DNA of 60,295 nucleotides, taken from the NCBI GenBank assembly GCA_964460975.1, contig CAYWTN010000004.1, forward strand, positions 1 to 60,295, in the 5' to 3' direction. Origin of the DNA: an uncultured Pseudomonadales bacterium. GTDB lineage: Bacteria > Patescibacteriota > Microgenomatia > UBA1400 > UBA1396. The translations under genes were made by a program, and so were the position numbers. Within the stretch, counting starts at the first letter, position 1. The number at the start of each line of letters is the position of its first letter. Below, in pieces: positions 26,161-53,831 of the stretch. Below the pieces are notes generated by a model. The model worked only from the letters and a program-made list of their open reading frames with translations, was not told the origin of the DNA and searched no databases.

Positions 26161-27162
26161 TTATTTCTCAGTCATCATGAGGATATTGTCCAGATGATCA
26201 GGATTTACAGCATCGGTCCATGAAAACTGATTATTTCCACCAAGTGTCCATATTTTTTTCAATAATGGTCCATACCCTCCATTGGAGTCTCTCCGCAGTA
26301 TATCTGCAGATGTTAGCCCTTCATCTAAACCTTGACCAACTCTTACTCCTATAGCAACACTAGACATCACCATAAAAGGTGAAACTTGTCCTACTCTATG
26401 ATTCTGAACGCTACTCAAAGCAACAGAAATCACCGCAGTTCCACTTTCCTCATAAACCTTTATTCCTGTTGACCAGCCACTTTGGACTGGATACTGGAAA
26501 GTATTATTGTATCCAGGAATCACCGATCCTGGGTTCATGTGTCTAGCTCCTGTTCGGAAAGAGACAATGATATTGTTAATCCCATGTTTTTTTAGAAATG
26601 GCGTTTCTTTTTCTAAGAGAGATCTTAACTCGCTAGCAAACTCCTCTGCAGTCATTCCATAATTTGTTACTAAATCTGGGCTCAGTAAAAGATTTTCTGC
26701 AAAAGAATCTTCACTAGAAACCTCAAACGAAAGCCTCCATTCAACCTTTCCATTATCATCCAATACTTCAAAAGCAGCAGTTTCACGGAAGTGCTGAGAA
26801 AACTCTTCATCTTCCAGAGCCCTGTCACCCATGTGAGGACGGTAACGTACTACTTCTCCAGATTCATTGACATGTTCCCAAGTCATGGCATCAGGATTGA
26901 AGGTCCAGTCTTCACTCTCACGAATGTACTCAGGCACTGAAAGACCGGCTTTGATTCGATCCTCTAAAATTTCTTCCTTCGGTTCCGCAAAGATACTTAC
27001 AAATTCAGGAACTCCTGGTCTCGTCTCAGTAGGGACATTCCCGTCTTCTTGCGCTTGAGTAATACTCCCTCTTGAAGCAATCAATCCAATCGCTGCAGCA
27101 ATGTGGGCAAAGTTGTCCAGTCTTTCAAAAGACACATTGAAACGTTCAGAACTTTTAGTCAT
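26161..27162 (-). CDS. secreted hypothetical protein, paralog B of a tandem pair
   Basis: AGAGGAG RBS and a weak signal peptide. A 98-aa block is identical to paralog A, and the C-terminal domains are related but diverged. Confidence 0.7.
   Translation of the reverse strand: MTKSSERFNVSFERLDNFAHIAAAIGLIASRGSITQAQEDGNVPTETRPGVPEFVSIFAEPKEEILEDRIKAGLSVPEYIRESEDWTFNPDAMTWEHVNESGEVVRYRPHMGDRALEDEEFSQHFRETAAFEVLDDNGKVEWRLSFEVSSEDSFAENLLLSPDLVTNYGMTAEEFASELRSLLEKETPFLKKHGINNIIVSFRTGARHMNPGSVIPGYNNTFQYPVQSGWSTGIKVYEESGTAVISVALSSVQNHRVGQVSPFMVMSSVAIGVRVGQGLDEGLTSADILRRDSNGGYGPLLKKIWTLGGNNQFSWTDAVNPDHLDNILMMTEK
26703..26997. repeat. 295-bp near-identical direct repeat, copy 1
   Basis: Base-by-base comparison with 27795-28089 shows a single mismatch (cactag versus caccag). 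Confidence 0.9.
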
Positions 27163-27264
27163 AAACTCCTCTTTAATGTAAAAAATTGAATTAACTTACC
27201 CAAGCAAGCATACACTAATACCCTTCTCTCAAATAAGACTTTCTCACGGAGAATAACATTAATC

Positions 27265-28695
27265 TTATTTAAGATTAACTGAAAGGATATTGCTTTTATG
27301 GTCCCGATACTCATAAAATTCCGATTTGTTGCCTACAGACCAAAGCTGTGAAAGGATTGGAATAAATTTTTCTGGACCATCTTTTTGAAGAATATCAGAT
27401 ACTGATAAGCCTTCATCAAGTCTTTGTCCAACATTAAGACCACTAACAAGGTTTGCCAAAACACTAATTGGACCATTCTCTCCTACCCTATGATTCTGAA
27501 CACTACTAAGCGCTCCCAAAATAATAACGGTACCACTTTCCTCAAAGACTTTAATTCCAGTAGAAAGATTTCCCTGAACTGGATACTGGAAAGTATTATT
27601 GTACCCAGAAATAATGGTTCCTGGATTATTATGACGAGTATCTGTTCTGAAAACAACAATGACATTATTAATTTCATGCTTTTTCAAAAAAGAGAAATGC
27701 TTCTCTAATAATGAACGAGTCTCGCTAGCAAACTCCTCTTCAGTCATTCCATAATTTGAGACCAAGTCTGGGCTTATAGAAAGACTATCAAGATAAGAAT
27801 CTTCACCAGAAACCTCAAACGAAAGCCTCCATTCAACCTTTCCATTATCATCCAATACTTCAAAAGCAGCAGTTTCACGGAAGTGCTGAGAAAACTCTTC
27901 ATCTTCCAGAGCCCTGTCACCCATGTGAGGACGGTAACGTACTACTTCTCCAGATTCATTGACATGTTCCCAAGTCATGGCATCAGGATTGAAGGTCCAG
28001 TCTTCACTCTCACGAATGTACTCAGGCACTGAAAGACCGGCTTTGATTCGATCCTCTAAAATTTCTTCCTTCGGTTCCGCAAAGATACTCTGCCATTCAC
28101 CCTCTTCTTCTATAACAGGAATAACCTCCACAGGGGCAATGGCTGGCCCGATGGGCTGCTCGAGAGGATTTTCGCTATTGGAACCTGGAGCAATACCGGT
28201 AGACACCGCAGCAGGAGCCTCGTTTGGCTCGGAGGCAGGAACTGGTTCTGGAGTGACAGGTACAAGATCTCGTAAAAAGATCGGCGTGCCACTGACACCC
28301 CTTATGGCAACAAACTGATCACCATCAACAGGTTCACCATTCTTTTCAACAATTTTTGCCCAGTAATAGCCATTGCTTTCCCCAGCTTGCGTGACAACAA
28401 GGGCATCGCCTCGTACCAACGTTCCCTTAATCGTTCCAGTGGTGGAACTTGTTGAACGGATATTCACCGACGTTCCAACAACCACCGTTTCATACTGGGT
28501 TGTGTCTATCTCAGGAACTAGAGGGGCCATTTCGTTGGAATGCGTAGCGGCAGCCGCAACGGCTGTGCCACCATCATGAGGAATATTGTCTTGCGCCTTC
28601 ACTTCACTCGCCCCAGCCACCATGGCGGCAGCGATCAAGGACATATTGCGAAGACTTTCGGATGAGATCCTTAAACGTTCTGAACGATTACTCAT
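27265..28695 (-). CDS. secreted SH3b-domain protein, paralog A of a tandem pair
   Basis: Start set at MSNRSERL, preceded by a GAAGGAG RBS. Bacterial SH3-like segment (VVVGTSVNIRSTSSTTGTIKGTLVRGDALVV ... YYWAKIV), a Pro/Glu-rich linker, then the region shared with paralog B. Confidence 0.7.
   Translation of the reverse strand: MSNRSERLRISSESLRNMSLIAAAMVAGASEVKAQDNIPHDGGTAVAAAATHSNEMAPLVPEIDTTQYETVVVGTSVNIRSTSSTTGTIKGTLVRGDALVVTQAGESNGYYWAKIVEKNGEPVDGDQFVAIRGVSGTPIFLRDLVPVTPEPVPASEPNEAPAAVSTGIAPGSNSENPLEQPIGPAIAPVEVIPVIEEEGEWQSIFAEPKEEILEDRIKAGLSVPEYIRESEDWTFNPDAMTWEHVNESGEVVRYRPHMGDRALEDEEFSQHFRETAAFEVLDDNGKVEWRLSFEVSGEDSYLDSLSISPDLVSNYGMTEEEFASETRSLLEKHFSFLKKHEINNVIVVFRTDTRHNNPGTIISGYNNTFQYPVQGNLSTGIKVFEESGTVIILGALSSVQNHRVGENGPISVLANLVSGLNVGQRLDEGLSVSDILQKDGPEKFIPILSQLWSVGNKSEFYEYRDHKSNILSVNLK
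27795..28089. repeat. 295-bp near-identical direct repeat, copy 2
   Basis: See copy 1. The offset between copies is 1092 bp. Confidence 0.9.
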
Positions 28696-28786
28696 AGACT
28701 CTCCTTCTGGGAATAGAAAAAACCGAGTCCAACCTGAACTCGCTGGCAAGGGGTCACTAAACCGCAATGCTGCATCTTAAAAAGAT

Positions 28787-33395: not shown

Positions 33396-34412
33396 TTACG
33401 CCACAAACTCAAGAACGTTTTCCCAAGAAAAGAGCTTTTGGCCCTCTTCGATGGCATCGTATCCTGGCAGTGTTCCGTGCACGAGAAGCTCCATCATGGC
33501 GCCGCCGCCTGTAGAAACGTGCGAGAAATCCTCGCGCTTCATTCCAAGAACGGTAAGAGCTGCTTCGGTGTCGCCACCGCCCACAACAGAAAAGACTTTG
33601 GTTTTGGAGAGCGAGTTGGCAATATATTTGGTGCCTTCCATACCAGCCTCGTCTTCGTACTTGCCCACTGGTCCATTCCAAATAACCGTTTCTGAGGCCT
33701 TAATGAAGCGATCAAATTGTTCCATGGAATCGACGGTGATATCCAGGCCACCATCTTTGAGGTCGGCCACAATGACTTTGCGATTGGTTTGTTCGAGATC
33801 TTTCTGACCATCGGCCAACTTTCCACCAATGAGGAAGACGTTCACATGCTCAAAAAGACGATCCAGGTACTCCAGCTTTTCGGCCTTGGCACCGCCCAAA
33901 ATGAGAGTGAGTGGACGATTGGGAGCATGAGCCAGACGGCGCAGAACCTTCATTTCCTTCTCAAACTGACGCCCCATAACGGTGGGAAGCAACTTGGGAA
34001 GCTGCACAATGGAAGCATGCTCGCGGTGTGCCGTGGCAAACGCGTCGTTGACGTAAAAATCAAAACCCTTGGCCAATTTTTTGGCAAAAGCGAGCGAGTT
34101 TTCTTCTTCACCGGCTTCGAATCGGAGGTTTTCACTAAACGTAATCCGTTCGTGAAACTTTTCTGGCACCATCTGCAACAACAGTTTGGTGATCGGCTCC
34201 AAAGAGAGTTTTTTCACGGTCTTGCCATCTGGTCGGCCACGATGTCCAATCACATGAACAGAAGCCGCACCACGCTTAAGAATTTGGTTGAGCGTAAGCG
34301 CGCCCATCTCAATACGAGTGGTGTCGAAACCTGTTTCATTTTCTGGCAAATCGAGATCGAGGCGAAGAAGGACTTTTTTCTCCTTGAGCGTAAGGGCTTT
34401 CAGGTAATACAT
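33396..34412 (-). CDS. pgk: phosphoglycerate kinase (compact, 338 aa)
   Basis: N-terminal KKVLLRLDLDLP, then HRGRP, FYVNDAFATAHR, GGAK, NGPVG and GGGDT motifs. Confidence 0.9.
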   Translation of the reverse strand: MYYLKALTLKEKKVLLRLDLDLPENETGFDTTRIEMGALTLNQILKRGAASVHVIGHRGRPDGKTVKKLSLEPITKLLLQMVPEKFHERITFSENLRFEAGEEENSLAFAKKLAKGFDFYVNDAFATAHREHASIVQLPKLLPTVMGRQFEKEMKVLRRLAHAPNRPLTLILGGAKAEKLEYLDRLFEHVNVFLIGGKLADGQKDLEQTNRKVIVADLKDGGLDITVDSMEQFDRFIKASETVIWNGPVGKYEDEAGMEGTKYIANSLSKTKVFSVVGGGDTEAALTVLGMKREDFSHVSTGGGAMMELLVHGTLPGYDAIEEGQKLFSWENVLEFVA

Positions 34413-37800: not shown

Positions 37801-38094
37801 CTAAAAATCCAGCTCTGCCCGTGCGACTGGGGACATTTCCTCGATGCTCCAGGGTGGGTCGAACGACAGTGTTACCTTGACCTCATTCGGAGTGAGGCCA
37901 TCGAGAGCACCGCGGATGAGTGAAGGAAAAACACTCGCTAGCGGACAGGCTGGTGTGGTGAGCGTGTAAACCACTTCGAGAGTATTGCCCAGAATGATCA
38001 CATCGCGAATGAGCCCCATTTCCACCACACTGATGCGCAGTTCAGGATCGAGAACCGTCCCGAGGCGCTCGTAGACTTCATTTTTAGCAATCAT
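37801..38094 (-). CDS. DUF59/SufT-like metal-sulfur cluster assembly factor
   Basis: VYERLGTVLDPELRISVVEMGLI ... TTPACPL pattern of the MIP18/DUF59 family. Confidence 0.8.
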   Translation of the reverse strand: MIAKNEVYERLGTVLDPELRISVVEMGLIRDVIILGNTLEVVYTLTTPACPLASVFPSLIRGALDGLTPNEVKVTLSFDPPWSIEEMSPVARAELDF

Positions 38095-39899
38095 TCATCA
38101 CCTTTGCTCACTTGGATGGAATCCATTTCTTTGCGCGTGGTAATTTCTCTGGTCGATTTATCGTTGCGGAATCGTACTAAACGAGGAAAACGCAGCGCCA
38201 CTCCAGCCGAATGCAACGGTGAGCGAGTTATTTCGTCCGCGGCCACTTCGACCACGATCATCGGTGGCAAAAGAACGTCGGGCATCAATCCTTCCGGGAT
38301 ATCAACACTCCAACGCTCAGTGCTTCCCGCTTCCTTCACTTCTTGCGCGCGCTGTGCCAGCTCTTTCCACTGTTCATCGCTGAGACCCGTTCCAATTTTG
38401 GCGAGAGTGACAAGCGAATCCCTTGTTTCGTCGTAGATACCAATGAGAAAGGCACCCACCCCAAAGGCCGTGCGCTTGCCTTTGCCGTAGTAGTAACCCA
38501 GAACGACGGCATCGATGGTGTCTGTGAGTTTTGATCCCGTGCCTTGCAGTTCCTTGAGCTTGACCCAATTAAAAGCCTTGCGACCAGATTGGTACTTTCC
38601 ATCCACCTTTTTTACAACAATACCCTCAAGCCCAAGCTGAAGAAACTCGCGGTGTTTTTGTTCGATAAGAGCTGGATCGTTTGTTCGGATGGTGGGAGCT
38701 AAGAGGAAATCTTGCTCACTAAGGTTGGCCCAGAGGGATTCGAGGTGGTGGCGGCGCCGCTCTAGCGGCGCCGCCACCACCGACTCTCCATCCACAAACA
38801 AAAGATCGAACACAAAGAATCGCAGCGGAATTTCGGCACTCATTGCTTCGATCCCGTGCTTCCGTTTGCGCTTGATTGTTTGCTGAAACGTCACCAACTC
38901 CAAAGACTCCGGGTTATACCCCACTGCCTCAGCATCCAAAATGATGGACTGAACCGGCAGCGCCTTCAACAAATGACGAAGCTCCGGAAACATTGCACTA
39001 TTTTCCTCCAAATTACGGGTAAAACTGCGCAGCTCCCCTGTTGCCGCATTCCAATGAATCTGCAAACGCGTCCCGTCATACTTGGGATCCACATAAACTT
39101 CCCCCATTTTTTCGACCATTTCTTGCGTTGTTTTGAGCCGATCACACAACGCTGGCACGATGGGAACACCAAGTGACGCATCGAGCTTTTGCGCTTCTGC
39201 CACGCCGCCGCGCAGCACTGCCGCACCAATGGCACCAATATCAGGGTGTCGCTGATACACATCGTCCAACTCCGCGCGCGCCGACTTATCACCGTGTAGG
39301 TACCAAGACAGCGCATCAAGAAGCGTTTTGTCCGAAAATCCCAGGCGCAGCTGCATCATAATCATGCGTACCACATACTTGGCCGAAAGGGGATCGAGCG
39401 TAGAGAGCAATCGAGCTACAAAATGGATCTTTTCTTCCTGGCTGCCCTCGCCCTCAATGTGCGTAAGCGCCACGAGTTTTTCAAAGAGTTCCGCTACTTC
39501 AATGTCCGCCACTTTCTGACGCTCTCCATCTTGATCAAGGCGCAACGACCGAACTTCTTGCGCCAGAGCACCCAGATCGCCCAGCTGCTTATAGCGTTTC
39601 TTGAGCATTTGCTTGGCGGTTTCGGCGGGGGCAATACTCTCGCCAAAAAGCCCCTGCACTTGCCCACCCGCCAAAGGGGAAAGCTCAGCCAAAGAGTACA
39701 GCATGAGCTCCACGCCAAAATAGTACTGTCGATTGGCAAAAATTGGCCCCGTTTGACCAAGCAAAAGGTACAAAAAAGCTGGCGCTTCTTCTGGCTGCAA
39801 CTTCCCAAAAAGCCGAGCCAAAATCTCTGTTTGCTCTAACTTTTTGCTCGTATTCTCGAGCGGCTGCAAGGATTCTTGGGCAAAATCGTGAAACTTCAT
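38091..39899 (-). CDS. lig: ATP-dependent DNA ligase (archaeal/eukaryotic Lig1-like, three-domain)
   Basis: Adenylation motif I VDPKYDGTRLQIH, with EGIVVK and WVKLK motifs. N-terminal DNA-binding-domain-like region and a C-terminal OB region. Confidence 0.88.
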   Translation of the reverse strand: MKFHDFAQESLQPLENTSKKLEQTEILARLFGKLQPEEAPAFLYLLLGQTGPIFANRQYYFGVELMLYSLAELSPLAGGQVQGLFGESIAPAETAKQMLKKRYKQLGDLGALAQEVRSLRLDQDGERQKVADIEVAELFEKLVALTHIEGEGSQEEKIHFVARLLSTLDPLSAKYVVRMIMMQLRLGFSDKTLLDALSWYLHGDKSARAELDDVYQRHPDIGAIGAAVLRGGVAEAQKLDASLGVPIVPALCDRLKTTQEMVEKMGEVYVDPKYDGTRLQIHWNAATGELRSFTRNLEENSAMFPELRHLLKALPVQSIILDAEAVGYNPESLELVTFQQTIKRKRKHGIEAMSAEIPLRFFVFDLLFVDGESVVAAPLERRRHHLESLWANLSEQDFLLAPTIRTNDPALIEQKHREFLQLGLEGIVVKKVDGKYQSGRKAFNWVKLKELQGTGSKLTDTIDAVVLGYYYGKGKRTAFGVGAFLIGIYDETRDSLVTLAKIGTGLSDEQWKELAQRAQEVKEAGSTERWSVDIPEGLMPDVLLPPMIVVEVAADEITRSPLHSAGVALRFPRLVRFRNDKSTREITTRKEMDSIQVSKGDE

Positions 39900-39917: not shown

Positions 39918-41009
39918 CTATACCAGCGTGTAATGCACGCCCTTTGTAACTCCATGCTTGCGGATCAGGCCTTTATCCATAAGGTCTTTGAGATCGCGCA
40001 GGACGGTATCGGTAGAAATCATGGGGAGAATGCGATTGAGCTCGGCACTCGTCACACGCCCCTGCTCCTGCAAGTACTCCATCACAATAAGCTGACGTTC
40101 GGTGAGCGCCACTTGTTGCCCCAGTTTTCGCTGCAGACGAAAATCCTGTGAGAGTTTGAGGACATGCTGCTTAATGCGATCCAACTCAATTGCCAAACCA
40201 TACGTGAAGTACTCCAGCCAGTAGGTCATATCGGCATCGGGACTATCCTGCACCGATTTAATAGCCAAATAGTAGTTTTCGATATCGTTATCGAAGTACT
40301 GTTCGAGCGAGAAAAAGCGCTTCACATCATACCCTTCGGCATACATAAGCGAAAGCGCCATGGCTCGGGAAGTTCGCCCGTTTCCCTCAATGAAGGGGTG
40401 AATGTTTACCAACTGATGATGCGTAATGGCGGCACGAAAAACGGTGTGCAGCAGATGTGATTGAGGATCATTGAGCCACGCAAAAAAATCCTTCACCAAA
40501 TGTGGCACTTCTTCTGGCGAAGGCGGACGATAGGCCACCTTACCAGACTCCACACTGCGCACTTCTACTCGCTGGGTGCGGTAGGCACCACACTGATCTG
40601 GAGGGATAATCCTGTGTGTAGAAAGCGAATGGAGCGTGCGAAACATTTCTTCGGTATAAACGGGACGAGTATTCCCCAAGTTATTGCCCCAGCCATTAAT
40701 CCAGTCCAAAACACTGCGGTAGTTGATTACCTCTTGGATATCGCGCGCCTTTCCCACAATTCCGGCTCGTGTAGCCACTTCTTCTGGCGTTGTTCCTTCG
40801 GTTACAAAAACACGCTCCGACTGCTCCTGAGAAAGATCGTTTCCTTCCAGGCGGGTGCCGTGATAAACCGTGCGAATCTTGGCCTCTTCCTGAAACTTCG
40901 CCTCCCAGGCTGGAACGATGGGGGCATTTTTAATCATTTCTCGAGAAGCCTCGATACTGGCAATGTACTGCAAAAGATTGTTGGAAATGCGAAAGTTTGG
41001 CGTGTACAT
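39918..41009 (-). CDS. Fic-family protein with C-terminal winged-helix domain
   Basis: Canonical Fic motif HPFIEGNGRTSR. C-terminal wHTH-like LTERQLIVMEYLQEQGRVTSAEL. Start set at MYTPNFRIS. Confidence 0.85.
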   Translation of the reverse strand: MYTPNFRISNNLLQYIASIEASREMIKNAPIVPAWEAKFQEEAKIRTVYHGTRLEGNDLSQEQSERVFVTEGTTPEEVATRAGIVGKARDIQEVINYRSVLDWINGWGNNLGNTRPVYTEEMFRTLHSLSTHRIIPPDQCGAYRTQRVEVRSVESGKVAYRPPSPEEVPHLVKDFFAWLNDPQSHLLHTVFRAAITHHQLVNIHPFIEGNGRTSRAMALSLMYAEGYDVKRFFSLEQYFDNDIENYYLAIKSVQDSPDADMTYWLEYFTYGLAIELDRIKQHVLKLSQDFRLQRKLGQQVALTERQLIVMEYLQEQGRVTSAELNRILPMISTDTVLRDLKDLMDKGLIRKHGVTKGVHYTLV

Positions 41010-41080
41010 ACTCTGATCTAGTTTATACACGTTTGCTGGGAAAATGCAAGAATTGTGCGTGAATGAAGAAGGGCCTGTCT

Positions 41081-42055
41081 TTACTGAGCAAGCTTTCCCC
41101 AAGTTGTGGGAAGGCGGTCCACCAAATCTGAAGTGTTATACATCATTCCCCTCTCCAGCCATAACTCGTGAGCCGCTTGTTTGTTGAGGAAACTTGCTGT
41201 TGCGGCCGATGCTAATGCCGGTGAGCCAGTCCAAAAGGCAGCAATCATTCCAGCCAGGGCATCGCCCGTTCCTCCTTTGGTCATGCCGGCATTCCCACCA
41301 GTTATGCCAAACACTTGAGAGCTATCCCAGAGAAGATCGGTTGATCCTTTCAGCAAAATGGTTGCGCCGCCGAGTTTTTGTGAGAATTTTGTAAGTTTTT
41401 GTTGGTATTCTTCTGGCAAAGATGACAAAAGCTCTTCCACGTGCGCCGATGAGGAATCCTCAGTGTTTTGAGAAAGAGTGATTGAAGAAAGGAACGTATG
41501 CCAAGTATCAAGTGATTCACCAGCTTTTTGCAGCAGATTCTCAAACTCTTTCCTATGAGGAGTAAGGATTGTGTTCTTGGGCAAGATAGACAGATCAAGC
41601 GTTTGCAGCGAACCAGCATCGAGCAACCAGCGTTTTTCTGGAAAGGTTCGCAAAAGGACACTCGTTAGCGCTCGAGTATCGTTTTCCCAATCAGACTCAC
41701 TCAAATCACTCACAGATAATGAAAGAAGTTCTTGATCGGAAAATCGCGAAGACACATCTCTCCTCATGCCAGGACCGAGAAGAATGGTATCCGCCTCTTG
41801 GATATAGGCTGGAATATCTTGGCGAGGAATCACAACGCCATCTTGTACGACACTCTTGGAAGCGCGTAAGATTTCGTTGTTCTCTTTTACTGAGCTATAG
41901 AAAACCATATCTACCCAACGCGAGGCGGCGAGAAAACTCCACTGCGCCGCGGCGTGAAAAAGATCGCTGCCACCGATAATAAGAACCTTGCCGTTCTGTC
42001 CTTTATGAGAGCTGTTTTGCGCTTGGGCTATTTGGTCAAGAAAGTGGTGAATCAC
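41081..42055 (-). CDS. nnrD: ADP-dependent NAD(P)H-hydrate dehydratase (YjeF C-terminal family)
   Basis: KGQNGKVLIIGGS and GGTGDALAGMIAAF motifs. GTG start proposed at 42055. The longer ORF runs into recF. Confidence 0.78.
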   Translation of the reverse strand: MIHHFLDQIAQAQNSSHKGQNGKVLIIGGSDLFHAAAQWSFLAASRWVDMVFYSSVKENNEILRASKSVVQDGVVIPRQDIPAYIQEADTILLGPGMRRDVSSRFSDQELLSLSVSDLSESDWENDTRALTSVLLRTFPEKRWLLDAGSLQTLDLSILPKNTILTPHRKEFENLLQKAGESLDTWHTFLSSITLSQNTEDSSSAHVEELLSSLPEEYQQKLTKFSQKLGGATILLKGSTDLLWDSSQVFGITGGNAGMTKGGTGDALAGMIAAFWTGSPALASAATASFLNKQAAHELWLERGMMYNTSDLVDRLPTTWGKLAQ

Positions 42056-44921: not shown

Positions 44922-44982
44922 CGAGTGATTGTACCAAAGAACCAGCGTTTTCTCCTTGATGAAATGCTACAATACGCCTAAC

Positions 44983-45411
44983 ATGAAACGCCGATTGCTA
45001 ACATTCATCCTGGGGATGGCATTTTCCCTCTCTTCCTTTTTGCTCCTCGTTCAGCCCGTGCAGGCGCAAGCTATAACCAAAGAGTGGTCGAGCGAATGTT
45101 ACACGGGTATTCAGTACCGAGGAGTGCGTTTAGAAGCAGCAACCATCCAGGGATTTGAGTGCTTGGTGGCAAATATTTTGGCAACCGCTACGAGCTTTAT
45201 TGGAATGGCCGCCTTCATCATGATCATTTTTGGCGCATTCCTCTATCTCACTTCTGGCGGAAACAGCAGTGGTATAGAAACAGCAAAAAAATCCATGACC
45301 TACGGCATTATTGGCATAATTGTGGCACTCATGGCGTACTTTGTGATTGTTCTGCTCGCAGACTTTACGGGAGTGGAAAGCCTCAAAATGTTCAATCTCA
45401 CAATTGATTGA
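44983..45411 (+). CDS. TrbC/VirB2-like pilin (T4SS-type)
   Basis: Signal peptide (cleavage near VQA-QA), then two long hydrophobic helices separated by a short polar loop (LTSGGNSSGIETAKKS). About 140 aa, typical VirB2/TrbC architecture. Confidence 0.62.
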   Translation: MKRRLLTFILGMAFSLSSFLLLVQPVQAQAITKEWSSECYTGIQYRGVRLEAATIQGFECLVANILATATSFIGMAAFIMIIFGAFLYLTSGGNSSGIETAKKSMTYGIIGIIVALMAYFVIVLLADFTGVESLKMFNLTID

Positions 45412-45456: not shown

Positions 45457-47334
45457 ATGAAAAAGATTCTTGCTAGCCTCGTTTTTGCTTTGCTCTTCTC
45501 TTTTTCTCTGGTGCGTCCAGCTTTTGCGCAGGAGAGCTCTGTTGCCCAAGCTGCTCCAGAATCTGAAGTAATCGCCCCAACGCAAACAACTCCTTGTCCG
45601 GCTGGGAGCACTTCTCCAGAATGTCAGCAGACCGTTGGTGGTGTCACCCTCAGTCCTGGTGCGATCATTGAAGCTATCAATGCCCCCACCCCAAACTTAG
45701 CTAACACTACCGCCTACGTTTTCTACACTATTTCCGTACTCATCAACGGAACATTCGATCCAAGCGAAGAAAAGGTTCACATTACCGAGGGTCAAGCTTC
45801 TCGTCCTCCCAATGTACAACAAGCTCTCAATGAGAGCGGCGCTATTGGCGGCGTTGGATTCCTTATTTCTGAGCTCATTACCAACAAACCCGTCTCCGCT
45901 GGCACCTACGTGGCCGATGTCATGAACAACTCCCGCTTTGGTGTTACGCCAGCCTATGCCCAAGGTATTGGTTTTGCCGCACTGACGCCTGTTTTGGGAA
46001 CTTGGAAGGCATTTCGTGATATGGCTTATTACCTCCTCACCGTCATGTTTATGGTAACGGGTATTCTTATTCTCATTCGACACAAAATCAGCAGTAACAT
46101 GGCTGTAACCGTCCAAAATGCTCTTCCCCGCTTGGTTATCACCCTCATTCTTATTACATTCTCGTACGCCATTGCTGGAATGATTGTGGATCTTATGTTC
46201 CTTGTTTTGAGTTTCATTGTGAACGTTTTCCAGTCGCAAATTTTTGCGGAAGGTCCCATTAACAATACCGTGGGCGATGTGCGGAATCTTGCCTTTAACA
46301 CGCATCTTTTCTCGTTCACCATGGATTACGTTTTTGGAAGCCCGGGCAACCACAACTCCAACGCTTGGGAGGCATCCCGTGCAGTGGGACAAATAGTGTA
46401 CAGTGCCATCGAAAACGCCGCTGGTCTGTCTGGAGCTTTCTCGAATGACGGCTTCTTTGGTAATCTCTTTACCGGAATCCTCCAGCTTATTTTTGCGATT
46501 ATTTTTGGTATTGCTCTGCTCATTGCCATGTTCCGCGTCTTCTTTGCCCTCATCATGTCTTATGCCGGTTTTGTGATGAATGTAGTGCTGAGTCCGCTCA
46601 TTTTGCTCCAAGGTGCGGTTCCTGGAAAGGATCCGTTCCAAGATTGGGTAAAGAATCTTATTGGCGGCTTGGCTCCTTTTGTAGTCGTTGTCTTTATGAT
46701 TCTTATGTCTTTAGCTCTCACGGGTTCACACACTCGAGCTGGTATTGGTTATGACCAAGCCGCCCCAGCCGACTCTGGTCTCCGTCTCCCCCTCATTTTG
46801 GCTGGCGAAATCCCTGCGGAATCCTTCCTCGGTATCCTTGGTATGGGCTTTATGCTCCTCCTCCCCAACGCCGTTGAGATCTCCAAGAAGATCGTTGGCG
46901 CCAAGGGTGGCATCATGGACGAGTTCAAGGACAAGGCCGTGGGGAACTTTAAGAAAGGTATTACTGGTGACACAATGGTTCCTGGACTTGGATTCACTAA
47001 AATGCCTGGAGCTGAACGACTTTTGGTTGGCTCTGCCGCATCTCGAGCTGAAGAGCGCAAGAAAAAACCAGGTGAAAAGACCATTCCATCTCGTCTCTAC
47101 AATCAGGGTCCAGTTGGCGCTGGTTTTGATATAACAAAAACCTTTTTGGAAACACGCTATGCTGATTATCAATCAAGAAAACAAGGTTATCAGCCATCAA
47201 ATGATCCCACGAGTAAAACAGGTAGCACTACTATTGCCACACCAAACGTTAATCTCATTACCTCGAATCTTAGTGGAAATCAACAAACTACTCCACAAAC
47301 AAGACCGCCTGTGGGCAACAGCAGCACTCCATAA
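45457..47334 (+). CDS. VirB6/TrbL-like polytopic membrane protein
   Basis: Signal peptide, a periplasmic segment, 6 or more TM helices and a long polar/disordered C-terminal tail. Sits immediately downstream of the pilin-like gene. Confidence 0.55.
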   Translation: MKKILASLVFALLFSFSLVRPAFAQESSVAQAAPESEVIAPTQTTPCPAGSTSPECQQTVGGVTLSPGAIIEAINAPTPNLANTTAYVFYTISVLINGTFDPSEEKVHITEGQASRPPNVQQALNESGAIGGVGFLISELITNKPVSAGTYVADVMNNSRFGVTPAYAQGIGFAALTPVLGTWKAFRDMAYYLLTVMFMVTGILILIRHKISSNMAVTVQNALPRLVITLILITFSYAIAGMIVDLMFLVLSFIVNVFQSQIFAEGPINNTVGDVRNLAFNTHLFSFTMDYVFGSPGNHNSNAWEASRAVGQIVYSAIENAAGLSGAFSNDGFFGNLFTGILQLIFAIIFGIALLIAMFRVFFALIMSYAGFVMNVVLSPLILLQGAVPGKDPFQDWVKNLIGGLAPFVVVVFMILMSLALTGSHTRAGIGYDQAAPADSGLRLPLILAGEIPAESFLGILGMGFMLLLPNAVEISKKIVGAKGGIMDEFKDKAVGNFKKGITGDTMVPGLGFTKMPGAERLLVGSAASRAEERKKKPGEKTIPSRLYNQGPVGAGFDITKTFLETRYADYQSRKQGYQPSNDPTSKTGSTTIATPNVNLITSNLSGNQQTTPQTRPPVGNSSTP

Positions 47335-47370
47335 GATGAGGTTTCAAACAAGTCTTGAATTTAAGACAAT

Positions 47371-50300
47371 TTACTTTTTCTGATTAGAAAGAGGGTTGAT
47401 ACCAAAGGTATCTAATAACCCTGCACCACGACGAGTCTTTCTGATACGTTCGAGAGTTTCCATGGTCTTTGAAAAACGATCAATTTGACCAGTGACGGCA
47501 GCAGCCATCCAGTCTAACGCTACACCTGCTGCTTTAGATCCACTACTAATGCCATTTTGGGCATAAAAGAGAAGTAAAGTAGAACGAATTTCACTCATCG
47601 AGAAACCCCAAGTATCAGGATCCATTGGATCTTTTTTCATTTCCGATAAGGGATGTTCAAGAAAAGATTCAAATGATTGTGGCGTAATACCAGCTGAACG
47701 CTCAATAACCGCGATACTTTCATAGGTCACGCGAGCTAACTGAAGTGCATAAGCAGTGAATAAAGAAACTTCTGTCGCAATGTCTTCTGGCATATGAACG
47801 ATAACGTCTTTCGTTATCGTCTGGCGAAGCATTGAATCCTTATTCATATCTACAATAGTCTCTGCATCACCATCAGCAATCATATCTTCAGGACCATTAC
47901 GCGGGTACATAAACTGAGAAATATATTGACTCATAATGGTATAAAACATTTGATCAATCTCAAGAACAAATCTTGCTTTTTCTGCACGAGCCTTCATGGC
48001 TGATTTCACCTTGGGATCTGATGAAGCCATAAATTTTGCTTCAGACTCTTCTAAGACAGAGCGGGCAATAAAGGCACGATTGGACGCATAAAAAGGCGTT
48101 TGATTCCAATCAACAAAAATATTGGCAAATGCCCTTTCATTGATTCTCGGATAAATAAAATCCATACTTCTTCTTTTATCGTAGGTGAAGCCTAAAAAGT
48201 TATTATTACTATCATAATTTGGCTGAGGAAGTTTTATAGACTCCCCACCGGCAGCTGAACCTGAATAGTAAGTAAAGAGATTATCATTTAATTCTTTGAG
48301 TTTAGTAATGTTTGTAATTTTCTCGCCCAGTTCCGTTTCTTGAACCTGCACCATTGCCCGAGCAGCGTCAAAAATAAGTGTGGAAGGATTGCCACCCTTA
48401 AGATCAGACGAGAGTCTTGATTTAAGCAATTTCAATGTGGTCTCAGCTGCCGAAGGGCTCAGACCACTCATATTTTGCATAAAAGAAACCAAGCTTCTCA
48501 TAATGCTCAGTTGTGGAGCTGCTTTAACAGACCATTCAACTTTATCGGAGATTGGGTTGAATTCAGGGAATATCTTATCAGTCATTATTGTCTGCATAAA
48601 ATATTTATGCTCAAAACTTAGATACTTTGCATAGTTTTCTTTGATTGAGTCAGGCTGAATTGTTTCCCCCCAGCCATAAAGAGAGGCACCAGATTCCTCA
48701 TCAAACTGAGGAAGACGTGCTCTATGAAGAGCATCATAAAGAGAAATTTGGAGGGGGAGAAACTCTTTTCTCATTACTCCCGTACTACGTCTTTGAGAAA
48801 CAGAGGCAATCGATTCATTTATTTGAGGTGTTCTTCGAACAAGAATTTTATCTCCACCAGACTGGAAAGGAGTCTTTTCCTTTTTCACTTCGATTACAAT
48901 AAAATACTTTGCAATCTCATCAAAATCTATTTGGTTCTGATCATTTCTGTAAATCTTGTAGGGAACCTGTCCAAGAGCATCAAGAAACTCTTTACTCTTA
49001 TTTCTGTTTTCCCTGCTACCGTAGCGACCAACAAGGTAATTCTCAAAATAATCTTGAAGATCGGCGCTTGTTTGACCAATATGAACATCATCGTAATTCA
49101 CCATGGCATTCAAATGGATATACTCCATTGGGGAAAAATAGTATGTTCTTCTATCTGTTACACGAGGTGTTTTCCCTTTTGAAGTTTCACCTAAATGATA
49201 GGCTGTCTTTGCTGGAATACCGTTTTCATCACGAGAGTGATAAGTACTTGCATTTGTCCCTTCAGAAAAACTACTTTTGTAAGCCTTTTTATCGTAAACA
49301 AGTCCCTGAAAATAGGCCCAAGATATATCATACGCAGCCTGAAAAGCCCACTTCATCTGTGATTCTATGTAGTCAGAAGACATTGCTGCTATTTCTGGGT
49401 CAACATTTTTCTTATCTTCAATTCGTTCTCTAAGAATTCCAATAACTGATTGGTACATGTCATTTGGATCGACGTTGGTGTTCGGAAAACCAATAGGAAC
49501 AACTATTTTTTTGCCACGAGAAGAAACACTCAACCCACGATAGGATTTATCTAAAATATAAAGTATTTCATTAAGAAGCTCTGAGAACAAAGCATTATGA
49601 ACATCTTTTCTCTTACCATTTTCAATAGTTGATCCAGAAACAAGATGGAAAATCTTTTCTGGATCCATGGAATATCCATCTTTCGCAACAAGTTTAATAA
49701 TATCTTCTTCACTGGCTTTTGTATTTGATGCCGGAATTATTTCGAGAACATCTTTTGCTTGGTTAGAAACAGTAGCAAAGTCTTCAACAATTTTTCTTGC
49801 CTCACCAAAAAATGATCTGATTCCTTCTGGAAGCTCGTTCTGCCAATCGTCTAAAGACAAAGGGTCCTTTTGTGAAACACGCTGGGGGTTATCAATAAAT
49901 TTATCAGAACCTGGATGCCATTTACCAGCTGTTCGGAGTCGTTTGTTTTTTGCTACAAAATTATCTTTGGCGATATCATCCATGATGACATCCATCCAGG
50001 CCATCAGATATTGATGAAAATCCCGAATAATCTTCATCCGTTCTTGAGAAGAATAACTTTTTTCATCTCTTGTAAGGATGCCCTCGATATTAAGAAAATC
50101 CTCACCAACCAAGGAACGTCCTTTTCGTACAAAAAAAGCAAAGTTTCCATTACCCTCTGCAATGTCTTGAGAGTTTTCTTGTACTGCTATGGTTGGTGAT
50201 TCTGGAACAATAGGCTTATCAAAATCACCAATAATTTCATTGAGTAATCGTATAAAATCCTCAACAATGGCGTGAAGCTCTTCGGGATAGTGTAAGAAAA

Positions 50301-50517
50301 GTGAGAAGGCAAGAGAATCAGTTTTTTCCCTTGCCATGACATCATTACCGTCAAGGACCGATTTTGCAATTTCCGTAATTGCCGTAGTGATCATTGAATC
50401 ACTGAGTTTAAAACGCTCGATCTTTGCAAGATCTTCTGATGAAACTTTTCCACGCAACTGATCCGCAAGACTATGCAGATTAAACTTTTTGGCTGCTTCT
50501 GACCGAGGACTGGACAT
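47371..50517 (-). CDS. large orphan protein (1048 aa), soluble, no recognised domain
   Basis: Uninterrupted 3.1-kb ORF with a GAGG RBS. No signal peptide or TM helix. AT-rich relative to the flanks. Confidence 0.75.
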   Translation of the reverse strand: MSSPRSEAAKKFNLHSLADQLRGKVSSEDLAKIERFKLSDSMITTAITEIAKSVLDGNDVMAREKTDSLAFSLFLHYPEELHAIVEDFIRLLNEIIGDFDKPIVPESPTIAVQENSQDIAEGNGNFAFFVRKGRSLVGEDFLNIEGILTRDEKSYSSQERMKIIRDFHQYLMAWMDVIMDDIAKDNFVAKNKRLRTAGKWHPGSDKFIDNPQRVSQKDPLSLDDWQNELPEGIRSFFGEARKIVEDFATVSNQAKDVLEIIPASNTKASEEDIIKLVAKDGYSMDPEKIFHLVSGSTIENGKRKDVHNALFSELLNEILYILDKSYRGLSVSSRGKKIVVPIGFPNTNVDPNDMYQSVIGILRERIEDKKNVDPEIAAMSSDYIESQMKWAFQAAYDISWAYFQGLVYDKKAYKSSFSEGTNASTYHSRDENGIPAKTAYHLGETSKGKTPRVTDRRTYYFSPMEYIHLNAMVNYDDVHIGQTSADLQDYFENYLVGRYGSRENRNKSKEFLDALGQVPYKIYRNDQNQIDFDEIAKYFIVIEVKKEKTPFQSGGDKILVRRTPQINESIASVSQRRSTGVMRKEFLPLQISLYDALHRARLPQFDEESGASLYGWGETIQPDSIKENYAKYLSFEHKYFMQTIMTDKIFPEFNPISDKVEWSVKAAPQLSIMRSLVSFMQNMSGLSPSAAETTLKLLKSRLSSDLKGGNPSTLIFDAARAMVQVQETELGEKITNITKLKELNDNLFTYYSGSAAGGESIKLPQPNYDSNNNFLGFTYDKRRSMDFIYPRINERAFANIFVDWNQTPFYASNRAFIARSVLEESEAKFMASSDPKVKSAMKARAEKARFVLEIDQMFYTIMSQYISQFMYPRNGPEDMIADGDAETIVDMNKDSMLRQTITKDVIVHMPEDIATEVSLFTAYALQLARVTYESIAVIERSAGITPQSFESFLEHPLSEMKKDPMDPDTWGFSMSEIRSTLLLFYAQNGISSGSKAAGVALDWMAAAVTGQIDRFSKTMETLERIRKTRRGAGLLDTFGINPLSNQKK

Positions 50518-50543
50518 ACCTTACCTCAATTATACTACGAAGG

Positions 50544-51815
50544 CTAGAGAATCTCTGCTAGCAATCTATGAATTGTTGCTGAATTTATAAGATCTTTTTG
50601 ATCTTCGCTCAATGATATTTTTTCCACAGGCGGCACAACTCCATGCATTTCCCCCTTCATCCATTTCACTAGAGTATTCTGAGAAGTACTAAACGCCTTG
50701 CCTTGGAAAATCTTCGTAAGGATAAATTTCCCATGTGTTCCCGAAAAAAACTTAAGAGCATTTTCTCGTTCTTCGGCATCATCAAGATTTAAGTGCTTTT
50801 CAACTTCTTGACGATCTTCTTCAGAGAGTACGTCAGGGACATGTTTAAGCACTTCACTCATTAAACTACTAATGAGTCCATACTTAGCATCAGCATTCCC
50901 AGAAATCGATCTCTTAATGCTGTCAAATATGGAGCGCTGATCTTGATCCATCTCAGGAACATTCCAACTATCATAACCGCGAGAGTATTGTCCATCTTTC
51001 TGTAAAAAGAAAGCATCGGTAAAATCAGAAAAACTATTGTTTGGGTTCGCAACAACATACAGCATCATCCGCTTAACAAAGTCATCTTTTTTCTTTTGTT
51101 CATCATTAGGAATATCTTCATTATCTACACCCTTTTCATCTTGAGATTCTGATGTAACTTGGTTTTCAGCTTCCTCTTCCATCAAGCTCTCCAGAATCTC
51201 GTCCAGGGTTACGGTATCTTGCAAGAGCTGTCTTTTGTCGGCATCTTTGAGTGCTTTAAATTCGTCTTCAGTAACGGGAATGCCTCTATCTTCCAATAGG
51301 CTTATGGTTATTTCCTGACCACGAATAAGGTTCTTTTCTGTAAAATCAATCAGTTCTGCATCCATATTCTTGAGGAAAGCATCAACTTCATCAGGCTTCA
51401 AGGCATCACCCGCGAGGCCAGCCTTTTCATGGATCATCGGAACAATGGCATTAGCCCTTTGCGCTTCTCTTGCATTAAACTCTTCAAGTTTTCTTAATAC
51501 TTCTTCTGCATAAACGGGGCCAGTTTTGTCTTCTTTTCCCGCATAAACGAGATCGCGTCCACGACCAACAATTCGCTCTTTCCATTCTTGAGGAGTGACT
51601 TCTTCTCCTAAGTCGGCGACATGATCTTCAATAACTGCTTTTTTATTGTCCTCAGGAATTTCTTCGAACTTTCCTTCAACAATGTCTTCGGGAACTATCT
51701 TTTTAGATTCGTCTAAACCTTTTTGTTGTTCCTCAGTAAGACCCACTTCAACAATAGGTTCTTTAGAAACTGGCTCGCGATAAATTTCCATGGAAGAAGT
51801 TTGACCATCTGGCAT
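50544..51815 (-). CDS. acidic orphan protein (423 aa), no recognised domain
   Basis: Uninterrupted ORF 26 nt upstream of the 1048-aa gene. Very Glu/Asp/Lys-rich and AT-rich. Confidence 0.7.
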   Translation of the reverse strand: MPDGQTSSMEIYREPVSKEPIVEVGLTEEQQKGLDESKKIVPEDIVEGKFEEIPEDNKKAVIEDHVADLGEEVTPQEWKERIVGRGRDLVYAGKEDKTGPVYAEEVLRKLEEFNAREAQRANAIVPMIHEKAGLAGDALKPDEVDAFLKNMDAELIDFTEKNLIRGQEITISLLEDRGIPVTEDEFKALKDADKRQLLQDTVTLDEILESLMEEEAENQVTSESQDEKGVDNEDIPNDEQKKKDDFVKRMMLYVVANPNNSFSDFTDAFFLQKDGQYSRGYDSWNVPEMDQDQRSIFDSIKRSISGNADAKYGLISSLMSEVLKHVPDVLSEEDRQEVEKHLNLDDAEERENALKFFSGTHGKFILTKIFQGKAFSTSQNTLVKWMKGEMHGVVPPVEKISLSEDQKDLINSATIHRLLAEIL

Positions 51816-51859
51816 ATGTACTCAAGATACCAGGTTATGAGTCATTCGCCAAATACCAC

Positions 51860-51897
51860 TTGCCACTCTCCCACAATTGTGGGTATAGTGTGGATAA
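51860..51897 (+). promoter_or_regulatory. candidate dnaA promoter (TTGCCA-18-TATAGT) overlapped by a perfect DnaA box
   Basis: TTGCCA at 51860-51865 and TATAGT at 51884-51889. tgtggataa at 51889-51897 is the reverse complement of TTATCCACA. Confidence 0.45.
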
Positions 51898-51939
51898 CTC
51901 TTTTTCTGCCCCAGGAAATATCTTGAGTGAGTTATCAAT

Positions 51940-53526
51940 ATGTCACAACTAGAACCCAAGATGGTTTGGGCGGAGGTTCTCAAAGAGCTTTCTCAGACCA
52001 TGTCATCATCATCTTTTTCCACGTGGGTAAAGCCTCTGGATCTGCGCGCCATCGATTTGGTTGGCGAAGCACACGCCATTGTGCACATCACCGCCATGAG
52101 TCCGTACGTTGCCCAACAAGCCGAACTGCGCTGCTATGCCCAGATTAAAAATATCATCGACCGAGTAACGGGTCGAGCTTGCGACCTCTCTTTTGGCGAA
52201 CCAGCAGGACAATCCCCCACATTACAGCCAATCCACTCCAATCCTTTGCCCAGCGCACCAGAACCGATCGTTCACCAAACACCTTTTGCGCCGCAGCCGG
52301 AGTTGGCGGCTGCTACGCCAGATACAGCAGCCACATCGCCCCTTTTCTCTCCAGGCAGTGGGAGTCATGGCAATCAACCCGCCAGCAATCTTCGCTCGCA
52401 AATGACAGGAAGCAAACAAGCCAGCGAACCACTTTCCCTTTTTGCACCAGCCGCTATTCGCATGCCAACAGTGGATCGCTACAAGCTGGCCGCCCAAAAA
52501 GCCCATCTGCGCGAGGACTTTACCTTCGATTCCTTCGCCGTGAGCGGATCCAACGAAATGGCCTATGCCGCCGCCAGTGCCGTGGCTCAGACGCCGGGCG
52601 CTGTCTACAACCCGCTCTTTTTATGGGGCGGCGTGGGCGTGGGAAAGACGCACCTCATGCAGTCAATCGGAAATGTTATTTTGCGCCAGAACCCAGAAAC
52701 GAGGATTAATTACTGCATGGGCGAAGAGTTTCTCAATGAGATTATTGGCGCCATTCGCAACAAAAAAACGCTGGAATTTAAGGAACGCTACCGCCAACTC
52801 AACGTGCTACTTATCGACGACATCCAGTTCATTGCCGGCAAAGATACCGCGCAGGAAGAATTTTTCCATACGTTTAATGCGATTACTCGGGCGGGCGGAC
52901 AGATTATTATGACCTCAGACCGCCCGCCCCACGAGATCCATCCATTAGAAGACCGCCTCCGCTCTCGTTTTGAAGGAGGACTCACTATCGATATCCAGCA
53001 GCCCACCTTTGAGCTTCGCACCGCCATCCTGCTCATTAAGGCACAAAAACTGGCTTTGGAACTGCCCATGAACCTGGCGCAGATTATTGCCAGTGAAGTG
53101 GAAAGCACCAGAAAGCTGGAAGGCGTGGTTTTTAAGCTGCACAGCGCCCACCGATTCCAGAATAAGCCGCTCGACGAGAACTTAGTGAGAATGGTTCTGG
53201 GACAAGAGTCCAAACCGGTCATTACTCGTCAAAATGTCAAACCATCAAGTATTGTGCGGGCGGTGACGTCGCACTTCCACGTCAGTGCCAACACGCTGCG
53301 CGGTGAGTCTCGCAAACGCGAGTACGTTACCGCCCGCCACATTGCCATGTACCTTATGAAGTCGGAACTCGATGTCCCTTACGCTGAGATCGGACACACG
53401 TTTGGCGGACGAGACCATTCATCAGTCATGCACGCTGTTGCCAAAATTGAAAAAGACATGAAGGAAAACTCCACGCTCAATCAGCACATTTCGGCTATTC
53501 GAGTTTCCCTTTCCGCCCTCTCCTAA
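51940..53526 (+). CDS. dnaA: chromosomal replication initiator protein DnaA
   Basis: AAA+ motifs (NPLFLWGGVGVGKTHL, LLIDDIQF) and a C-terminal DNA-binding domain (ARHIAMYL ... GGRDHSSV). Long Pro/Ala/Ser-rich domain II linker. Confidence 0.95.
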   Translation: MSQLEPKMVWAEVLKELSQTMSSSSFSTWVKPLDLRAIDLVGEAHAIVHITAMSPYVAQQAELRCYAQIKNIIDRVTGRACDLSFGEPAGQSPTLQPIHSNPLPSAPEPIVHQTPFAPQPELAAATPDTAATSPLFSPGSGSHGNQPASNLRSQMTGSKQASEPLSLFAPAAIRMPTVDRYKLAAQKAHLREDFTFDSFAVSGSNEMAYAAASAVAQTPGAVYNPLFLWGGVGVGKTHLMQSIGNVILRQNPETRINYCMGEEFLNEIIGAIRNKKTLEFKERYRQLNVLLIDDIQFIAGKDTAQEEFFHTFNAITRAGGQIIMTSDRPPHEIHPLEDRLRSRFEGGLTIDIQQPTFELRTAILLIKAQKLALELPMNLAQIIASEVESTRKLEGVVFKLHSAHRFQNKPLDENLVRMVLGQESKPVITRQNVKPSSIVRAVTSHFHVSANTLRGESRKREYVTARHIAMYLMKSELDVPYAEIGHTFGGRDHSSVMHAVAKIEKDMKENSTLNQHISAIRVSLSALS

Positions 53527-53831
53527 TGTGCCTTTTCCCCAAGATATCCTCATATGTGGATAAACTCTGTGGATAACATTCCGTTTTCTGTTCAAAACCC
53601 AAGGATAACTTTCCCCCAAATCCACACACGGCAACGACGCAAACACACCTTTCCCCCAAATCGCGCCAACTCTCCCCAAACTCTTCACATTGTTTTCCGC
53701 CGTGCTTTCGTTATACTGATCACACCAATGAAGCCCAAAACTTCTTGAGGCGGTCGCGTGAGTTATGCACTTGTCCACACGCCTACTACTTCTACTACTA
53801 ATTTAAATATACATATAAGAAAATACGGACT
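53527..53831. other. oriC-like dnaA-dnaN intergenic region (DnaA boxes plus an AT-rich unwinding tract)
   Basis: Perfect boxes tgtggataa at 53555-53563 and 53568-53576. One-mismatch box TTGTCCACA at 53771-53779. AT-rich aatttaaatatacatataagaaaata at about 53801-53826. Confidence 0.7.

Follow-up and report, generated by a model that had tools for sequence, protein, structure and literature searches.

The 60,295-nt stretch of DNA analyzed here (the window; NCBI GenBank assembly GCA_964460975.1, contig CAYWTN010000004.1, positions 1 to 60,295) is, judged from its gene content and from related MAGs, an origin-proximal type IV secretion system (T4SS) locus of a Woesebacteria-like member of the Patescibacteria (Microgenomatia). 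Between approximately 47,050 and 51,870 it carries a hypervariable cassette, which consists of the C-terminal tail of a VirB6-like membrane protein, a large soluble protein, and a small acidic protein. The position, orientation, and size class of this cassette are constant over the clade, and wholesale replacement of its sequences is seen even among close relatives. The reading favored here, at a probability of about 40%, is that of a T4SS-coupled specificity cassette, in which the large protein would be an exported substrate that, with the acidic protein as its chaperone, docks on the VirB6-like tail. According to two publications (Quinonero-Coronel et al. 2025, PMC12102498; Wang et al. 2023, PMC10633639), Patescibacteria T4SSs are often encoded beside dnaA and dnaN, are related to the conjugation systems of monoderm bacteria, lack a relaxase in most clusters, have an unknown substrate, and are essential for epibiotic growth of S. 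epibionticum, the one species tested. No description of the clade-wide cassette pattern was found in the literature searched here.

The large soluble protein (1048 amino acids) is encoded by the open reading frame (ORF) at 47371-50517 of the minus strand, and the small acidic protein by the ORF at 50544-51815 of the same strand, which counts 423 amino acids from its first ATG and 415 amino acids in the public gene call, where Met9 is the start. The spacer between them (50518-50543, minus strand) measures 26 nt, and a GAGG ribosome-binding site can be read in the sequence 8 nt ahead of the ATG of the large ORF, which suggests that the two ORFs form a single operon. The pair is convergent on the VirB6-like ORF, a spacer of 36 nt (47335-47370) separating the stop codon of the large ORF from that of the VirB6-like gene, and divergent from dnaA, with a control region of 124 nt (51816-51939) in which both strands carry promoter-like sites and a perfect DnaA box is located at 51889-51897. 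The VirB6-like gene itself (45457-47334, plus strand) encodes a polytopic membrane protein of 625 amino acids with a signal-like N-terminus and approximately 9 transmembrane (TM) segments, and is preceded by a gene for a VirB2-like T4SS pilin (44929-45411, plus strand; PF18895 T4SS_pilin, 29.9 bits against a cut-off of 26.6, E 5.8e-07). A preliminary description of this DNA, made from its letters, had reported two co-directional minus-strand ORFs 26 nt apart with a GAGG site, converging on the VirB2-like and VirB6-like genes and running away from dnaA; re-reading gave the same coordinates and spacer, and the ORF map and the pilin match agree with the orientation. The same description had seen no signal peptide, TM helix, or motif in either protein, and the hydropathy scan and family searches were likewise empty: neither the small protein (pI 4.55) nor the large one (pI 5.58) has a TM segment or a signal-like N-terminus. 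Inspection of hydropathy and N-termini over all proteins found in this slot also gave no Sec or Tat signal, as for cytoplasmic-type proteins.

The slot between the VirB6-like gene and dnaA is occupied in approximately 25 related genomes by a convergent gene of about 1000 amino acids, to which the Woesebacteria-like genomes add an acidic gene of 270-495 amino acids upstream. The gene order in every family member is dnaA, a variable stretch, the acidic gene (405-495 amino acids), the large gene (978-1129 amino acids), the VirB6-like gene, the pilin gene, and lepA. Scanning GTDB genomes with an alignment of the VirB6-like protein yielded 16 loci, and all of those that extend past the VirB6-like gene have a convergent, TM-free ORF of 900-1215 amino acids directly after it, preceded by an acidic ORF in the Woesebacteria-like loci. 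In Pacebacteria-type loci, dnaA and lepA are not nearby and a convergent soluble ORF of about 1000 amino acids still follows the VirB6-like gene, so that the association is with the VirB6-like gene and not with the origin; these ORFs are positional analogues only, as homology to the large protein of the window is not detectable. The Pacebacteria-type cluster further comprises pilins, a signal-peptide-bearing protein of about 975 amino acids, an M23 peptidase of about 1280 amino acids, and PrgI/VirB3. Tandem enlarged pilin-like genes (210-300 amino acids) stand upstream of the signal-peptide-bearing protein of about 975 amino acids, which is acidic, in three of these loci (L024 4201-5801, L026 4366-5870, and L031 4086-5881), an arrangement that fits the pilin arrays reported for Microgenomatia. 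Finally, a metagenome scan detected 342 VirB6-like relatives, 80 of which were fetched, and 40 of the resulting loci extended at least 4 kb downstream. In 40/40 of these, the VirB6-like gene is followed, after a median gap of 16 nt, by a convergent ORF of 575-1534 amino acids (median 985) that has no more than one TM segment. Co-occurrence of homologues with T4SS-like genes, proposed earlier as a check, was found throughout, every homologue standing beside pilin and VirB6-like genes and none at an unrelated locus.

Sequence conservation in the cassette is as low as its placement is constant. Identity among relatives amounts to 66-79% for LepA and 47-74% for the VirB6-like protein (across 15 genomes), and to 23-39% for the large protein where it can be aligned at all. 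Clustering of 76 slot proteins with phmmer resulted in 31 clusters, some of which were joined by hhalign (D-E, D-I, and D-J at 96-99% probability, B-F at 56%); cluster A, to which the protein of the window belongs, had no hhalign link to clusters B, C, or ten further clusters. The replacement is most evident in two pairs of close relatives, L016/L017 (LepA 92%, VirB6-like protein 62%) and L002/L022 (LepA 87%, VirB6-like protein 76%), in both of which the large proteins fall in different clusters and are unalignable. On both flanks the DNA of these pairs is 70-77% similar, up to a break that begins within the VirB6-like gene, at its 3' end, and lasts as far as the gene next to dnaA. Similarly, DNA similarity between the window and its relatives ends at 46,949-47,054 and resumes at approximately 51,872, limits that coincide with the low-G+C block, and the sole similar island left inside the variable block (49,069-49,297, in comparison with L004) contains the conserved motif of the large protein. 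Alleles thus appear to be exchanged between related lineages, most likely by homologous recombination within the clade, since no flanking repeats, integrase, or adjacent tRNA were found at the cassette and no relatives in phage, plasmid, or viral collections.

The variable block includes the 3' end of the VirB6-like gene (46970-47334, plus strand), encoding the C-terminal tail from about residue 506 to residue 625. Average identity of the VirB6-like protein is 56-80% in the core versus 14-33% in the last ~120 residues; the proteins of L002 and L022, for example, share 76% identity over the core and 20% over the tail. Two tail types could be distinguished. Type 1, with 'GFTKxPGA...SR' followed by a P/T/S/N-rich part, occurs in the window and in L004, L002, L005, L006, L007, L009, and L011, all of which have cluster A large proteins, and type 2, with 'NKYVPGAK' followed by a Gly/Ala-rich part, occurs in L016 to L022, together with cluster B, the L020 singleton, and the distant A-branch protein P0013. 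The tail type tracks the cassette type and not the species tree, and this co-switching is the strongest available hint that tail and cassette proteins may interact physically.

The small protein begins with an acidic, disordered stretch, contains 'F(L/I)xx(I/F)FA..G' as a conserved segment, and ends in an amphipathic helix; its profile had no match in PDB. Homologues were detected in 15 genomes and form one family across large-protein clusters A and B, some of them accompanying a different large-protein cluster. The gene is adjacent to, upstream of, and co-directional with the large gene in 15/15 Woesebacteria-type loci, and the encoded proteins have a pI of 4.35-5.1. Relationships among the small proteins differ from those among the large ones, the small protein of L005 being closest to that of L022 and its large protein to that of L002, which suggests mosaic exchange. 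In nine relatives another gene, for a soluble protein of 600-670 amino acids, lies between the small acidic gene and dnaA (for example L001 6632-8491, L006 6699-8591, L009 6568-8433, and L016 17184-19163); it has no Pfam match, diverges fast (23-71% identity), and is missing in the window, L020, and L021.

Neither the large nor the small protein matched Pfam, PHROGs, NCBIfam, PADLOC, or PDB sequences, and profile searches of PDB with four alignments, the large and the small protein among the queries, were also without a match. A word-indexed search of 5.8 billion proteins returned 2 homologues of the large protein, and a hidden Markov model scan of 1.84 billion representatives returned 12 clusters, all singletons and named at best 'hypothetical protein'; a scan of genome contigs with the large-protein alignment gave no match, and a search with the 10-sequence profile, in which the candidate list was saturated, gave three close members, all known before. 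The proteins, called orphans in the preliminary description, are near-orphans. An AlphaFold2 (AF2) model of the large protein built on a 10-sequence alignment reached a pLDDT of 72.1 and a pTM of 0.69 (a 3-sequence input was unusable, pLDDT 39.7), and is chiefly alpha-helical with a few small beta sheets. Foldseek searches with this model, a check that had also been suggested beforehand, gave no significant match to a housekeeping or any other fold: the best E-values were 0.13 against PDB and 0.018 against BFVD, with TM-scores of at most 0.11, and the top matches, all non-significant, were alpha-solenoids such as huntingtin, importins, and Nup188.

The best-conserved stretch of the large protein (49123-49293, minus strand; amino acids 409-465) reads 'YDKKAxKSxFxEGxNASTYHxRDxxGIPAKT...TSKxKTPRVTD..YYFSP' with its invariant columns; it is in part a low-confidence loop in the AF2 model (pLDDT <50 for residues 422-458), and may be a binding or active-site loop. 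Residues F141, D409, Y426, Y750, and P910 are invariant in the 10-sequence alignment. The sequence GETSKGKT at 442-449 is not a P-loop signature of the family, since G448 varies within it, and a recurrent Walker A motif was found in none of 52 slot proteins. A divergent VirB4/TraC-type ATPase was accordingly rejected as an identity for the large protein (no conserved P-loop, no match to Pfam or to PDB by sequence or profile, and no Foldseek match to a solved structure), as was a VirD4-type coupling protein (no TM segment, no conserved P-loop, and no Pfam or PDB match). The C-terminal tail of the large protein (47374-47445, minus strand; amino acids 1025-1048, ending in ...NQKK) is modeled with a pLDDT <50, and the last 30 residues carry a net charge of +4, which is in the top 4% of windows of that protein. 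A Lys within the last three residues was present in 20/24 slot proteins (83%), compared with 28% of 297 background ORFs, in a set of sequences that are phylogenetically non-independent. The tail is a possible export signal.

The low G+C content of the pair relative to lepA and dnaA, which the preliminary description had estimated by hand, was borne out by computation. The G+C content is 0.384 for the large and 0.399 for the small ORF, versus 0.501 for lepA and 0.529 for dnaA, and the G+C content at third codon positions (GC3) is 0.298 and 0.321, respectively, versus 0.531 for lepA, 0.580 for dnaA, and a mean of 0.487 for the 48 ORFs of the window. The large ORF has the lowest GC3 of these 48 (z = -1.98) and the small ORF ranks fourth (z = -1.74), so that the pair is a real but not an extreme or unique outlier, as several other ORFs have values of 0.31-0.35. 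Windowed G+C falls at approximately 47.0 kb and rises again at approximately 51.9 kb. Low GC3 is common to the slot genes of all lineages, and in 36/40 metagenome loci the GC3 of the slot ORF is below that of the VirB6-like gene (Wilcoxon p = 1.8e-8). A second low-GC3 block, at 26161-28767, comprises two co-directional acidic ORFs of 333 amino acids (GC3 0.314) and 500 amino acids (GC3 0.349, with a weak SH3_3 match) without a further family match, and may be another fast-evolving surface or host-interaction locus.

In the proposed mechanism, the large protein would be made in the cytoplasm without a Sec signal, and the acidic partner would hold or target it, as chaperone or adaptor. The VirB6-like protein would offer its matching cytoplasmic tail as docking site, and the large protein would then leave via the T4SS or pilus and reach the interface with the host cell, either as an effector or as a component of host contact. 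Diverse alleles with AT-rich synonymous sites would result from antagonistic co-evolution with the host, together with exchange of alleles by homologous recombination in the conserved flanks. This reading is supported by the conserved context, the T4SS linkage, the lack of signals and TM segments, the hypervariability, the coupling to the tail, the adjacent acidic partner, and the low GC3, and more weakly by the positively charged, low-confidence C-terminal tail and the Lys-rich termini. Among the traits by which a T4SS substrate may be recognized, genetic linkage to T4SS genes and the lack of a Sec/Tat signal or TM segment are both observed.

Several points weigh against the specificity cassette. 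The links are all genomic, export and binding being predicted, and a gene found universally at a fixed site (40/40 loci) would more typically encode a part of the machine than its cargo. Only Woesebacteria-like loci have the small acidic family, which is missing from the more distant ones, a terminal Lys is present in only about half of the wider set of 49 proteins (hand count), and 0/36 representative slot proteins have a Pfam match or an effector-type enzymatic or toxin domain. Assignment of the VirB6-like protein is based on topology and neighbors and lacks a family match: 0/9 members match Pfam, PDB sequences gave no match, and the sole match in NCBIfam is weak (MMCAP2_0566 conjugal transfer protein, E 0.067). 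Moreover, neither VirB4, the T4SS hallmark, nor TrsD turned up in the window or in the flanks fetched for its relatives, and because of the missing VirB4 an active T4SS machine in this genome is only putative.

The locus resembles the published Patescibacteria T4SSs (MPF-FATA-like), as described in PMC12102498 and PMC10633639, in its origin-proximal and chromosomal location, its VirB2-like pilin(s) and VirB6-like protein, the lack of a relaxase, and its lineage-wide occurrence, and the Pacebacteria-type relatives add PrgI/VirB3 and the M23 peptidase. It differs from them in that VirB4 and TrsD are missing from the sequence covered, and in the convergent large ORF with its acidic partner, which the accessible text of both publications does not describe; VirB6 homologues, moreover, are reported there to be scarce in Microgenomatia. 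VirE1-VirE2 of Agrobacterium tumefaciens and CagF-CagA of Helicobacter pylori likewise combine a large protein without a Sec signal, encoded beside T4SS genes, with a smaller acidic neighbor; the acidic gene is upstream and co-directional as in virE1-virE2, the putative substrate is fast-evolving as is CagA, and a positively charged, unstructured C-terminal signal is plausible in the large protein of the cassette. However, there is no similarity in sequence or fold, the acidic partner (270-495 amino acids) is far larger than VirE1, the large protein is replaced whole between relatives with the channel tail changing along, and translocation is, for the cassette, a prediction. The conserved secretion genes flanking a hypervariable, AT-rich, recombining slot with many unrelated alleles in close relatives are also reminiscent of type VI secretion system VgrG-effector islands, type VII secretion system LXG toxins, and contact-dependent inhibition (CDI)/Rhs loci. 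Those systems, however, keep an N-terminal delivery domain, swap a C-terminal toxin, and carry a downstream immunity gene, whereas the cassette diverges over its full length, has no recognizable toxin domain, and has the convergent VirB6-like gene as downstream neighbor. A polymorphic toxin system of the LXG, Rhs, or CDI type was thus rejected, on the basis of the full-length divergence, the lack of a toxin domain in 36 alleles, and the convergent VirB6-like gene in the downstream position.

The main alternative, less probable than the favored reading, holds that the large protein is not exported and is a cytoplasmic T4SS scaffold on the VirB6-like tail, a docking platform perhaps in place of a coupling protein, with the acidic protein as assembly factor. 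It would then correspond to the hydrophilic, helical (ARM-repeat-like) domains which 'extended' VirB6 proteins of Saccharibacteria carry as fusions, but would be encoded by a gene of its own. Such a role would explain why the gene is present at a fixed position in 40/40 loci, as expected for a core part. The chiefly alpha-helical model, with alpha-solenoids as its top, non-significant Foldseek matches, is in line with it, and the cassette shares with extended VirB6 (Saccharibacteria SEML1_0013/0011 and F-plasmid TraG) a large, hydrophilic, mainly helical module tied to a VirB6 channel. The hydrophilic domain of F TraG is a specificity determinant for mating-pair stabilization and entry exclusion. 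In S. epibionticum, VirB6 (SEML1_0013, 1088 amino acids) and SEML1_0011 have C-terminal ARM-repeat domains, according to the supplement of PMC10633639, and the VirB6-like proteins of Microgenomatia measure only about 500-650 amino acids. Co-variation of the VirB6-like tail with the cassette would also be expected of a scaffold, and the remote homology of clusters D-E, D-I, and D-J (hhalign 96-99%) fits one old, fast-drifting family. However, an internal structural subunit would not usually be replaced wholesale between close relatives or diverge faster than the rest of its locus, cluster A of the window is unlinked to any other cluster even in profile-profile comparison, and a significant ARM/HEAT match is lacking (best E 0.13, TM-score 0.11). 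The module of the cassette, moreover, is a separate gene on the opposite strand and not a fusion.

It is improbable that the pair is variable cargo unrelated to secretion, such as an anti-phage or conflict system or a toxin-antidote pair, that resides in a recombination hotspot beside the VirB6-like gene. An AT-rich, hypervariable block between conserved core genes, with alleles swapped among relatives, and a two-gene operon with a small acidic protein ahead of a large one are what such cargo would look like. Yet PADLOC gave 0 matches for the window pair and for four proteins of related loci (two large-protein homologues and two L001 neighbors), so that a known anti-phage system was rejected, and neither the window proteins nor the 36 representative alleles gave a match to an ATPase, nuclease, or other enzymatic domain. 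Defense hotspots differ in how many genes they hold and often hold none, whereas this slot is in every case filled by a single convergent large ORF, similar in size and set off by a tiny gap. In addition, the association tracks the VirB6-like gene even where dnaA and lepA are not its neighbors, and the VirB6-like tail co-varies with the cassette.

Far less credible is an unrecognizably divergent DNA-processing protein, for instance a relaxase, with the small protein as its accessory and a T4SS that still moves DNA. A large soluble protein with a small upstream gene beside mating-pore genes does mirror trwA-trwC and virD1-virD2, which are relaxase/accessory pairs of conjugation loci. The locus also adjoins oriC, and the published survey states that very different relaxases may remain undiscovered (PMC12102498). 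The 10-sequence alignment, however, has no conserved HUH/3-His motif and no conserved N-terminal catalytic Tyr, the large protein has no match in Pfam, NCBIfam, or PDB sequences and no Foldseek match to a solved PDB structure, and an acidic pI of 5-6 speaks against bulk DNA binding. A conjugative relaxase of the MOB families was rejected on the lack of a conserved His cluster and of a family or fold match.

The preliminary description had also considered the block compositionally foreign, and a recently acquired genomic island, to which the low G+C, the lowest GC3 of the window, and the sharp edges at ~47.0 and ~51.9 kb would point, is highly improbable, as none of the relatives examined has an empty slot, the alleles of all lineages have low GC3 in common, the family is limited to this clade, and no integrase, flanking repeats, adjacent tRNA, or phage, plasmid, or viral-contig relatives were found; the atypical composition stands and the recent insertion does not, and on these sequence comparisons 'laterally replaced within the clade' appears a fair description of the block.

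The surroundings of the cassette are those of a chromosomal origin. Perfect DnaA boxes occur in the window only at 51889-51897, in the spacer upstream of dnaA, and, in tandem, at 53555-53563 and 53568-53576, in the dnaA-dnaN spacer (53527-53831), which also has a one-mismatch DnaA box at 53771 and is likely to be oriC. The GC skew changes sign approximately 2.3 kb to the right of this spacer, at ~56.0 kb, near yidC/jag. Neighboring genes in the window comprise lepA, recF, a Carb_kinase-family gene (NAD(P)H-hydrate dehydratase), genes for a Fic protein and an ATP-dependent ligase, dnaA, dnaN, yidC, jag, and a DUF4012 gene. DnaA (51940-53526) has a long, low-complexity linker rich in Pro, Ala, and Ser between its N-terminal domain and the AAA+ domain (approximately residues 85-185). 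The genes for a Fic/DOC protein with a C-terminal winged-helix domain and for the ATP-dependent DNA ligase (39918-41102 and 38091-39899, respectively) are syntenic with the lepA-recF block in several relatives, including L006, L009, and L011. Elsewhere in the window, two proteins have surface or carbohydrate-binding domains, namely dockerin and TIG (621 amino acids, 13286-15151) and F5/8 type C (985 amino acids, 22593-25550); similar domain types are reported for essential envelope proteins of S. epibionticum (PMC10633639). The phosphoglycerate kinase ORF (33396-34412) is short, with 338 amino acids versus 379 positions in the Pfam PGK model, which it matches in two separate stretches; a frameshift, a sequencing error, or truncation of the gene may be the cause. 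Two divergent tRNA genes at 17688-17922 are the only Rfam matches in the window.

Overall, the earlier suggestion of an undescribed accessory system, comprising an effector or substrate pair or a machine component, has gained comparative evidence and a clade-wide pattern, and the role itself stays an inference. Extended to the clade, the favored reading becomes the more doubtful but possible proposal that T4SSs of Microgenomatia (Woesebacteria and Pacebacteria) universally carry a recombining specificity cassette, made up of a VirB6-like tail and a matched, exported protein of new fold, with an acidic chaperone in Woesebacteria-like loci, that would set which host can be exploited. Across this large uncultured clade, the large gene constantly accompanies the VirB6-like channel gene, and no other element of the locus evolves as fast or is replaced as often; the low G+C is the mark of a locus that diversifies and recombines, and not of a foreign insertion. 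The cassette proteins are concrete, testable candidates for the substrate or docking platform of a T4SS without relaxase. If the specificity cassette is real, they would be the first candidate substrates of the essential Patescibacteria T4SS, with a channel receptor tail that co-switches with its cargo, and would provide a possible genetic basis of host specificity in ultra-small symbiotic bacteria.

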